Of a stretch of DNA of 64,000 nucleotides, positions 20,406-49,952 are shown piece after piece. The notes under the pieces were generated by a model. The model had not been told where the DNA came from and ran no database searches. It saw only the letters and a list, made by a program, of their open reading frames with translations. This stretch comes from Escherichia coli (GTDB lineage: Bacteria > Pseudomonadota > Gammaproteobacteria > Enterobacterales > Enterobacteriaceae), in NCBI RefSeq assembly GCF_041886205.1, contig NZ_CP169029.1, one strand, 5' to 3'. Both the position numbers and the translations under genes were made by a program. The number at the start of each line of letters is the position of its first letter. Position 1 is the first letter of the stretch.

Positions 20406-20619
20406 AAAATCACAGGGCAGGGAAACCTGCCCTTGTTTCAGCGCGCTTTTAGAGCACGCATTTTTTCATACTCTAAATAATTCGAGTTGCAGGAAGGCGA
20501 CAAGAGAGTGAATCCCCAGGAGCTTACATAAGTAAGTGACTGGGGTGAGCGAACGCAGACGCAGCACATGCAACTTGAAGTATGATGAGTATAAGGCCCG
20601 ACGATACAGGACAAGAGAC

Positions 20620-21699
20620 ATGTCTAAGATTTTTGATTTCGTAAAACCTGGCGTAATCACTGGTGATGACGTACAGAAAGTTTTCCAGGTAGCAAAAGAA
20701 AACAACTTCGCACTGCCAGCAGTAAACTGCGTCGGTACTGACTCCATCAACGCCGTACTGGAAACTGCTGCTAAAGTTAAAGCGCCGGTTATCGTTCAGT
20801 TCTCCAACGGTGGTGCTTCCTTTATCGCTGGTAAAGGCGTGAAATCTGACGTTCCGCAGGGTGCTGCTATCCTGGGCGCGATCTCTGGTGCGCATCACGT
20901 TCACCAGATGGCTGAACATTATGGTGTTCCGGTTATCCTGCACACTGACCACTGCGCGAAGAAACTGCTGCCGTGGATCGACGGTCTGTTGGACGCGGGT
21001 GAAAAACACTTCGCAGCTACCGGTAAGCCGCTGTTCTCTTCTCACATGATCGACCTGTCTGAAGAATCTCTGCAAGAGAACATCGAAATCTGCTCTAAAT
21101 ACCTGGAGCGTATGTCCAAAATCGGCATGACTCTGGAAATCGAACTGGGTTGCACCGGTGGTGAAGAAGACGGCGTGGACAACAGCCACATGGACGCTTC
21201 TGCACTGTACACCCAGCCGGAAGACGTTGATTACGCATACACCGAGCTGAGCAAAATCAGCCCGCGTTTCACCATCGCTGCGTCCTTCGGTAACGTACAC
21301 GGTGTTTACAAGCCGGGTAACGTGGTTCTGACTCCGACCATCCTGCGTGATTCTCAGGAATATGTTTCTAAGAAACACAACCTGCCGCACAACAGCCTGA
21401 ACTTCGTATTCCACGGTGGTTCCGGTTCTACTGCTCAGGAAATCAAAGACTCCGTAAGCTACGGCGTAGTAAAAATGAACATCGATACCGATACCCAATG
21501 GGCAACCTGGGAAGGCGTTCTGAACTACTACAAAGCGAACGAAGCTTATCTGCAGGGGCAGTTGGGTAACCCGAAAGGCGAAGATCAGCCGAACAAGAAA
21601 TACTACGATCCGCGCGTATGGCTGCGTGCCGGTCAGACTTCGATGATCGCTCGTCTGGAAAAAGCATTCCAGGAACTGAACGCGATCGACGTTCTGTAA
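20620..21699 (+). CDS. fbaA: Fructose-bisphosphate aldolase class II, 359 aa
   Basis: ORF track 20536..21699; ATG at 20620 gives MSKIFDFVKPGVITGDDVQKVFQVAKENNFALPAVN. Confidence 0.97.
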   Translation: MSKIFDFVKPGVITGDDVQKVFQVAKENNFALPAVNCVGTDSINAVLETAAKVKAPVIVQFSNGGASFIAGKGVKSDVPQGAAILGAISGAHHVHQMAEHYGVPVILHTDHCAKKLLPWIDGLLDAGEKHFAATGKPLFSSHMIDLSEESLQENIEICSKYLERMSKIGMTLEIELGCTGGEEDGVDNSHMDASALYTQPEDVDYAYTELSKISPRFTIAASFGNVHGVYKPGNVVLTPTILRDSQEYVSKKHNLPHNSLNFVFHGGSGSTAQEIKDSVSYGVVKMNIDTDTQWATWEGVLNYYKANEAYLQGQLGNPKGEDQPNKKYYDPRVWLRAGQTSMIARLEKAFQELNAIDVL

Positions 21700-21722
21700 G
21701 ATATTCCTTTCTGCTTATCTCA

Positions 21723-21750
21723 AGGCCCGCTCTGCGGGTCTTTTTTTCGC
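21723..21750 (+). terminator. Rho-independent terminator of fbaA
   Basis: ggcccgc-tct-gcgggtc followed by tttttttcgcc. Confidence 0.8.
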
Positions 21751-21765
21751 CAAAAGCAAAATTGC

Positions 21766-21862
21766 CTGATGCGCTACGCTTATCAGGCCTACACGTATCC
21801 TGCAATATATTGAATTTGCAGGTTTTTGTAGGCCGGATAAGGCGTTCACGCCGCATCCGGCA
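21766..21862. repeat. REP/BIME pair between fbaA and mscS
   Basis: gcctgatgcgctacgcttatcaggcctac and gtaggccggataaggcgttcacgccgcatccggca in inverted orientation. Confidence 0.7.
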
Positions 21863-22056
21863 TGACAAAGCGCACATTGATATCTGTCTGAGCCCCGCTC
21901 TGCGGGGATTTTTTCGCTAAAAGCAAGGTGATTCAGATGAGAAATCTGTGATCTATTTGGCAAAATTATGCTTTATTGTTTACCCTTGTCAGACTGCCCG
22001 TCATAAGGCGGCGGAGTGTATTTCTCCATTTTGAGTCAGTTGAAAAGGAATATTGA

Positions 22057-22917
<861 letters not shown>

Positions 22918-49770: not shown

Positions 49771-49952
49771 GCCTTTGTAGGCCTGATAAGACGCGCCAGC
49801 GTCGCATCAGGCATCGGAGCGCAACCGCCGGATGCGGCGTGAACGCCTTATCCGATCTACGGGCCTCGTCCCTGTTGTGATAAAGGCATCAAATCCCAGA
49901 CATGATAAGACGCGTCAGCGTCGCATCAGGCGATAAATGCCTGATGCGATAC
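49771..49952. repeat. REP/BIME cluster (at least 3 REP units) between convergent yqfA and ygfZ
   Basis: gtaggcctgataagacgcgccagcgtcgcatcaggc, gccggatgcggcgtgaacgccttatccgatctac, and gataagacgcgtcagcgtcgcatcaggc. Confidence 0.7.

Follow-up and report, generated by a model that had tools for sequence, protein, structure and literature searches.

The two near-identical segments that bracket an inverted pair of REP sequences between fbaA and mscS of Escherichia coli most likely represent a target-site duplication, produced when a BIME-1 element inserted next to the intrinsic terminator of fbaA; we assign this reading a probability of about 0.8. The spacer lies in a 64,000-nucleotide stretch of E. 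coli DNA (the window, in whose coordinates features are given), and extends for 357 bp from the fbaA stop codon (21697-21699, + strand; open reading frame 20536-21699, annotated as fbaA in matching E. coli records) to the mscS coding sequence (22057-22917, +). Before the event, the spacer would have been about 190 bp long with one terminator, and the insertion would have copied 37 bp of target (the hairpin, its T-run and 12 more bases) so as to leave one copy on each side of the element. We regard the fbaA-mscS locus as a well-explained instance of a known element and the wider footprint as a lead. Two results go beyond the initial annotation of this sequence: the unit is now being deleted and amplified through its two copies, and a hairpin is duplicated in the same way at other BIME-1 loci.

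The initial annotation had described near-identical direct repeats of roughly 55 bp in the fbaA-mscS spacer, each a hairpin followed by a T-tract. The repeat itself is real, although its true extent is 37 and 36 nt. The best direct alignment pairs 21723-21759 (AGGCCCGCTCTGCGGGTCTTTTTTTCGCCAAAAGCAA; copy 1, 37 nt, +) with 21891-21926 (AGCCCCGCTCTGCGGG-GATTTTTTCGCTAAAAGCAA; copy 2, 36 nt, +) at a start-to-start spacing of 167-168, and 32 of the 37 aligned positions are identical, with four substitutions and one missing base at the stem/T-run junction. Its local score of 25.5 exceeds all 300 dinucleotide-preserving shuffles of the 357-bp spacer (mean 10.2, sd 1.45, maximum 16). Each copy consists of a GC hairpin, a T-run and then CGC(C/T)AAAAGCAA, so that copy 1 comprises the hairpin, the T-run and CGCCAAAAGCAA, and both score as terminator-like in a scan, as had been claimed. 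Copy 1 is the sole copy in the short E. coli allele and in other Enterobacteriaceae; copy 2 is missing from every REP-less orthologue. As for the remainder of the 55 bp, the bases added on the right (21760-21771) are where the REP itself begins, and those added on the left (21716-21722 against 21886-21890) show only weak similarity between the target (ATCTCAAG) and the right-flank end of the element (GTCTGAG).

The claim that the copies bracket an inverted REP pair also stands, since a Y and a Z1 REP are located between them. The insert is a 131-bp BIME-1 made up of a Y REP, an L linker with an IHF-like site, a Z1 REP and a right flank. BIME-1 is defined by Y and Z1 REPs and an L linker with an IHF site, a definition in which the conserved outer flanks have no part (PMC3333891). 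Aligned column for column with 19 other BIME-1 loci, the insert has its Y-type REP at 21764-21792 (+, inverted orientation, ending CTAC) and its Z1-type REP at 21828-21862 (+, starting GTAG), in the inverted orientation that characterizes the class. The 35-nt L linker between them (21793-21827, no strand assigned) was recognized by an Rfam match and by the 17-mer TGCAATATATTGAATTT, which is identical in 52 BIME-1 instances, and contains on the - strand a predicted IHF site, ATTCAATATATTG, that matches the IHF consensus, WATCAANNNNTTR, at 12 of 13 positions. As RNA, the inverted REP pair folds at -50.5 kcal/mol (z = -6). The outer flanks of BIME-1, which are reportedly motifs A and B of Gilson 1991 and Bachellier 1994, are unevenly preserved at fbaA-mscS. 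On the left, alignment with the 19 other loci, where the usual flank is TGAGACTGATGACAAACGCAAAACT, leaves an AATT remnant (21760-21763, +), or 4 nt of about 24, so that some 20 nt are missing. The 28-nt right flank (21863-21890, +) is present but diverged (TGACAAAGCGCACATTGATATCTGTCTG as against the consensus TGAACAAAGCGCACTTTGTCAACAATCTGA of other loci), and in E. whittamii the right flank at this locus has the consensus form. BIME-1 is a single-copy element, and there is one copy in the window and one in K-12; where there are two copies (L005 and L212), the doubling came about by way of the target repeats on either side and did not involve linkers of the BIME-2 kind. The unit that varies is 167 bp long (21760-21926, +) and occurs 0, 1 or 2 times among Escherichia genomes.

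Two Rfam families touch the element. ES036/CssrF (RF02751, listed as an sRNA) matches the L linker at 21785-21827 (-) with 47.3 bits against a gathering score of 37.6, and this Rfam 'sRNA' model therefore matches the BIME-1 repeat itself; naRNA4 gives a partial match to the Z REP at 21831-21866.

The state of the locus before insertion can be approached through its orthologues. One genome per species was scanned with MscS and the fbaA-mscS spacer was taken where fbaA lay within 1.5 kb, a scan that returned no E. albertii, E. fergusonii or Salmonella. It yielded 52 REP-less spacers of 158-218 bp from Citrobacter, Klebsiella, Enterobacter, Kluyvera, Kosakonia, Pluralibacter, Phytobacter and others, together with two divergent genomes labelled 'E. 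coli' (L003 and L004). All 52 lack both a REP and an internal repeat (best score at most 14, against 25.5 in the window), and a simple scan found a single terminator-like hairpin in 49 of them. REP-less orthologues carrying both terminators, which the initial annotation had named as the observation that would argue against an insertion-associated duplication, were looked for and were absent: the 52 spacers are all single-copy, and two terminator copies without a REP were likewise found in none of 3 sequenced short-allele E. coli and 12 sampled short-class rows. Within E. coli, the long form is present in 3719 of 5425 complete genomes (∼69%), and in the other rows sampled (∼31% of genomes) the locus is exactly 167 bp shorter. 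The short allele of ATCC 25922 reads ...AAGGCCCGCTCTGCGGGTCTTTTTTTCGCCAAAAGCAA|GGTGAT..., such that the upstream hairpin, T7 and CGCCAAAAGCAA are joined to the right flank of copy 2, GGTGAT, and it is colinear with the spacers of Citrobacter and Kluyvera. Because REP-less spacers are without the repeat and the short E. coli allele is one unit shorter, we conclude that the duplication came with the BIME. The ancestral fbaA-mscS spacer is best reconstructed from these comparisons as having one terminator and no REP. REP/BIME insertion with target duplication, as initially suggested, is thus borne out by a REP-less E. coli allele that has one terminator and is shorter by exactly 167 bp, and a length polymorphism that divides E. 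coli ∼69% to 31% is explained by BIME-1 plus a terminator copy.

Some spacers in the survey were of other kinds. In 28 of 80 loci (L007-L012, L014, L015 and others, from taxa that include Trabulsiella, Citrobacter amalonaticus, Pseudocitrobacter and Buttiauxella) the fbaA 3' end was absent within 1.5 kb upstream of mscS, reflecting either a larger insertion or another gene order. The 405-bp spacer of Intestinirhabdus alba (L027:∼1096-1500) is enlarged by an ERIC-like element (…TAGTCCCCGGGAGCTTACTGAGGTAAGTGACCGGGGTGGGCG…), not a BIME, and the 494-bp spacer of Entomohabitans (L036) by unrelated sequence.

Inside Escherichia the history is more involved. The odd junctions of the element (AAAAGCAA|AATTGCC on the left and ...CTGA|G on the right) are common to E. 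coli, E. whittamii (L006) and Escherichia sp. E1V33 (L005), and identical idiosyncratic junctions in three lineages indicate that the insertion happened once. In E1V33 the spacer is 527 bp long and holds three terminator copies and two BIMEs (T-BIME-T-BIME-T). A search of E. coli genomes for the junction unique to such a doubled array returned strain SW070917 (L212), whose 524-bp spacer is arranged T1-BIME-T2-BIME-T2, T1 and T2 being the terminators of copies 1 and 2. Its middle copy has the T2 hairpin followed by the start of the BIME, the reciprocal of the deletion product, and the crossover falls inside the 18-nt TTTTTTCGCCAAAAGCAA common to both copies. The copies recombine unequally, deleting or doubling the 167-bp unit, and both reciprocal products are seen.

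Given this activity, the long form might be the older one within Escherichia and all short E. coli alleles might be secondary precise deletions by copy-copy recombination, that is, 'excision of a whole BIME-1'. We take this to be a serious contender that falls a little short of even odds. The junctions common to E. coli, E. whittamii and E1V33 imply a single, old insertion, the doubled array occurs in two lineages and testifies that copy-copy recombination takes place, and a crossover within the 18-nt core would yield the short allele exactly. In addition, a local neighbour-joining tree built from 1.76 kb of the flanking genes has a patchy distribution of alleles, with short ones (E. coli ATCC 25922, DA33135 and ChlosBP, plus L003 and L004) scattered among long ones (the K-12/O157 clade, E. 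whittamii and E1V33). This patchiness means that some Escherichia short alleles may be secondary deletions or recombinational replacements instead of never-occupied sites. Homologous allele replacement accounts for it equally well, however, in a region that is recombinogenic: L004 (CP089930.1, 'E. coli strain E69') is a mosaic in which the last 900 nt of fbaA are 98.8% and mscS 89% identical to the window, placing a recombination breakpoint at or near the spacer. Moreover, wholesale secondary deletion would alter only the history within Escherichia and would leave the origin of the repeat unexplained, as all 52 spacers from outside species are single-copy and colinear with the short allele. 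For that origin, target duplication by BIME-1 remains our preferred reading.

Both copies of the duplicated segment are capable terminators by sequence, each with a GC-rich hairpin and an immediate T-run, and both coincide with RNA 3' ends in vivo. T1, the original intrinsic terminator of fbaA (21722-21747, +; terminator scan, fold and Term-seq), has a 9-pair stem at 21722-21742 and a T7 run at 21741-21747. T2, the duplicated terminator (21893-21914, +; terminator scan and Term-seq), has a stem of 6 GC pairs at 21893-21907, followed by an A and a T6 run at 21909-21914. The initial annotation had proposed 3'-end mapping as the means of deciding which hairpin ends fbaA transcripts, and the dominant Term-seq 3' ends of MG1655, a K-12 strain whose copy 2 has a single nucleotide difference from that of the window, have been published (Adams et al. 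2021, PMC7815308, supplementary file 1). The method maps RNA 3' ends whether they come from termination or processing. An end in the T1 T-run (MG1655 3070118/9, -), classed as primary for fbaA, is listed in all three growth conditions (160555 reads in LB at OD 0.4, 54607 in LB at OD 2.0 and 120854 in M63); one at the last T of the T2 T-run (3069950, -), classed as orphan, is listed in LB at OD 2.0 only, with 44902 reads, and is unlisted in LB at OD 0.4 and in M63. In a ProQ study the fbaA 3' UTR was given as the last 91 nt of the transcript, from +1038, an end that falls in the T1 T-run. Together with the Term-seq ends, this identifies T1 as the main working terminator of fbaA. A promoter scan found no promoter-like site on the + strand between T1 and T2, and the late-growth RNA that ends at T2 may stem from read-through of T1. 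The tandem terminator arrangement, which the initial annotation had offered as an alternative to insertion, therefore holds true in a functional sense, in that the fbaA 3' end of K-12 has two working terminators.

This raises the question of whether the arrangement is a functional module under selection, with the repeat reflecting function and not insertion history; an IHF-bound BIME flanked by two terminators could, for example, shield mscS from the strong expression of the pgk-fbaA operon, or a stationary-phase transcript could have its end at T2. The appearance of the T2 3' end only at OD 2.0, where it comes near T1 in strength (44902 against 54607 reads), would fit such a role, as would the majority status of the long allele (69%) and the retention in E. 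coli T2 of a 6-pair GC stem despite a change on both sides (G.T to C-G). We nevertheless think it unlikely that function accounts for the repeat, because the unit is missing from 31% of E. coli genomes and from all other genera, its copy number ranges from 0 to 2, and in E. whittamii the T2 hairpin has decayed to the point of destruction with T1 intact. Any function acquired after the event would in any case leave the origin of the repeat unexplained, and insertion with duplication of the terminator continues to be the better account.

Two neighbouring features of the locus are also worth recording. The segment at 21945-22010, 5' of mscS (TGTGATCTATTTGGCAAAA … TTGTTTACCCTT), has been kept across Escherichia, Klebsiella, Kluyvera and Kosakonia, unlike the remainder of the spacer, and probably contains the promoter or regulatory region of mscS; directly upstream of it lies the BIME unit. 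On the other side of fbaA, the pgk-fbaA spacer (20470-20595) carries a complete ERIC/IRU repeat (…GAGTGAATCCCCAGGAGCTTACATAAGTAAGTGACTGGGGTGAGCG…), located after the terminator of pgk and before the start of fbaA, and an 'orphan' 3' end (MG1655 3071314, -) is listed inside it in all three conditions (Adams 2021).

The connection between BIME-1 and hairpin duplication extends to other places. Scanning metagenome contigs with the linker 17-mer recovered the 52 BIME-1 instances at 20 distinct loci, and many of these loci have the same architecture: a locus-specific hairpin, TGAGACTGATGACAAACGCAAAACT, Y-L-Z1, TGAACAAAGCGCACTTTGTCAACAATCTGA, and then the same hairpin again followed by a T-run. The hairpin copies hold fixed positions, the left one ending ∼24 nt ahead of the Y REP and its partner on the right starting ∼29 nt after the Z1 REP. 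When the left flank of each of the 20 loci was scored against its own right flank, with the right flanks of other loci as control, the own-locus score exceeded the 99th percentile of the cross-locus control at 8 of 20 (Mann-Whitney p = 3.7e-4); about half of the sampled BIME-1 loci are without a recognisable second hairpin copy. In every one of the five locus pairs for which filled and empty alleles could be aligned, there is one hairpin when the site is empty and the same hairpin on both sides of BIME-1 when it is filled, such that a direct repeat surrounds the insert and one copy remains in the empty site, as in a target duplication. Filled and empty alleles differ by 171 bp at metE-ysgA (duplication of 19 nt), 176 bp at srmB-yfiE (25 nt), 174 bp at ymdF-rutG (23 nt), 171 bp at yacH-lpdA (about 21 nt) and 167 bp at fbaA-mscS (37 nt), the polarity of the change having been established by outgroup comparison at fbaA-mscS alone among the five. 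The length of the duplication is thus not constant (19, ∼21, 23, 25 and 37 nt) and tracks the hairpin. At the four typical loci the upstream hairpin copy is without a T-run and the downstream copy alone keeps it.

Individual loci vary. At fbp-yjfF (L205) and chbG-katE (L213) the BIME-less E. coli allele carries a wholly different terminator hairpin that is not alignable, the entire spacer having been replaced, and gldA-yijF is nearly fixed (filled in 5229 genomes). The 3' ends listed for srmB-yfiE and ymdF-rutG are Rho-dependent antisense ends only (Adams 2021); at srmB-yfiE (L109 and K-12) the Rho table gives each of the convergent genes a Rho-dependent end antisense to its partner (2714601, +, and 2713962, -). 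The same data list no dominant Term-seq end at the duplicated hairpins of srmB-yfiE, which suggests that termination at these decayed hairpin copies is poor. A second BIME in the window (49777-49948), with several REPs and short linkers and not of the BIME-1 type, has no obvious duplicated flanking hairpin; the duplicated-hairpin footprint may be specific to BIME-1.

The other loci also bear on the order of events at fbaA. Tandem terminators are common and useful, and RNA 3' ends are found at both copies, so that the terminator might have been duplicated first, by a local tandem duplication that was selected or drifted as a double terminator, with the BIME inserting between the copies later. 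We consider this very improbable: there is no REP-less two-copy spacer in 52 species, 3 sequenced short-allele strains and 12 sampled short-class rows, long and short alleles differ in length by precisely the BIME and one copy, and the same architecture at four other BIME-1 loci with unrelated hairpins would not be expected from independent prior duplications. A chance likeness of two GC-rich terminator hairpins can be dismissed, for although hairpins with T-runs do have composition in common, a score of 25.5, where shuffles reach no more than 16 and cross-locus comparisons have their 99th percentile at 12, already refutes it, and the 18 nt 3' of the stem, which are not part of any hairpin, are identical between the copies in K-12.

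The duplication goes with the BIME, it begins and ends at the feet of the hairpin, and its size follows that of the hairpin (19-25 nt at four loci and 37 nt at fbaA), unlike the duplications of classical transposons. How the hairpin comes to be duplicated we infer from this footprint in the sequence. The geometry suggests that the target would be cut on opposite strands at, or just past, the two feet of the hairpin, and such cuts would be expected of a hairpin extruded as a cruciform or a single-stranded stem-loop during joining of the element. At most BIME-1 loci the downstream cut would fall right at the 3' foot of the stem, causing the upstream copy to lose its T-run. The right junction at fbaA is standard (+28). 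The left one lies 18 nt further downstream than usual, at a point where there is similarity between the target (CCAAAAGCAA) and the stretch of left flank that the element lacks (ACAAACGCAA), with GCAA exactly in common; this could reflect microhomology-guided joining or be a coincidence. With its left junction so placed, the fbaA duplication includes the T-run and CGCCAAAAGCAA, the element is without ∼20 nt of its left flank, and, with a complete terminator in each copy, most of the BIME falls outside the fbaA mRNA. The consensus flanks of BIME-1 are themselves alike in direct orientation (left …TGATGACAAACGCAAAAC… and right …CATGAACAAAGCGCAC…), and at several loci the target sequence 5' of the hairpin is similar to the last bases of the right flank (ATCT.A). 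Such likeness between flank and target could come from a target preference or from an older duplication.

A broader proposal, which we advance tentatively and on balance lean against, is that BIME-1 integrates specifically at GC-rich terminator-type hairpins and duplicates the whole hairpin, with the length of the duplication set by DNA structure and not by an enzyme, a signature that would be previously undescribed. If this is correct, a duplication set by structure would indicate that the element integrates where a hairpin or cruciform is extruded, and offers a testable handle on the unsolved question of how REP/BIME sequences spread. At typical loci, the T-run and the working terminator would have been moved downstream of the element and the BIME placed in the 3' UTR, which would explain the location of BIME-1 at the 3' ends of transcription units.

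Several parts of this picture are ordinary when set beside known systems. Intrinsic terminators, tandem terminators and repeat-mediated deletion or amplification are all familiar. The fbaA arrangement resembles tandem intrinsic terminators in having two hairpin and T-run signals in series with in-vivo 3' ends at both, and differs in that T1 and T2 lie 168 bp apart with a structured repeat element between them, as a by-product of insertion. Deletion and doubling of the unit by a crossover inside the repeat are likewise what unequal crossing-over or slippage between short direct repeats would give, with nothing unusual about them; the repeat here is only 36-37 nt long, with an identical core of 18 nt.

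The element also agrees with BIME-1 (RIB/RIP) as described in its REP types, their orientation, the L linker, the presence of a single copy and the position at the 3' end of a transcription unit. It departs from that description in a left flank short by ∼20 nt and in that an element described as single-copy can be doubled here through its flanking repeats; bracketing by a duplicated locus-specific hairpin is not mentioned in the literature covered. Presence/absence variation of BIME-1 among E. coli isolates had already been reported (Bachellier 1997 as summarised in PMC1187871; PMC3333891). A hairpin-sized target duplication is undescribed in Ton-Hoang 2012, Nunvar 2010, Delihas 2011, Corneloup 2021, Bertels & Rainey 2011 and Chiapello 2005, a search outside of which the key BIME literature of the 1990s lies; should that literature already contain the footprint, the finding becomes an ordinary, well-explained instance.

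Like the target-site duplications of IS elements and MITEs, the direct repeats at BIME-1 loci flank the insert and are represented by one copy in the empty site. Classical target-site duplications are 2-14 bp long with a length fixed by the enzyme, whereas the length here tracks hairpin size (19-25 nt, and 37 nt at fbaA). Class C bacterial group II introns, which are retroelements, insert after intrinsic terminators without duplicating them; like BIME-1 they settle beside a terminator hairpin, where landing does no harm, but the BIME-1 insertion duplicates the hairpin. The candidate machinery is TnpA(REP)/RAYT. REPs resemble the subterminal hairpins of IS200/IS605-type elements, and in vitro TnpA(REP) both cleaves BIME DNA and joins it again; its cuts can fall some way from a REP, and it has been proposed that a unit could in this way take up flanking sequence (PMC3333891). 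The enzyme is a candidate with an unproven role in dissemination. The IS200/IS605-type family is described as generating no larger target duplications (PMC2817692), and the elements on either side of tnpA(REP) in E. coli are Y/Z2 BIME-2 and not BIME-1. Insertion without a larger target duplication, as in IS200/IS605-like elements and the proposed RAYT mode, does not describe the 19-37 bp duplications at these five loci. REP/BIME repeats are among the most abundant elements of enterobacterial genomes, and a consistent footprint with a locus-specific hairpin on both sides of BIME-1 constrains any model of their spread; it argues against simple IS608-like single-strand cut-and-paste and points to terminator hairpins as the targets.
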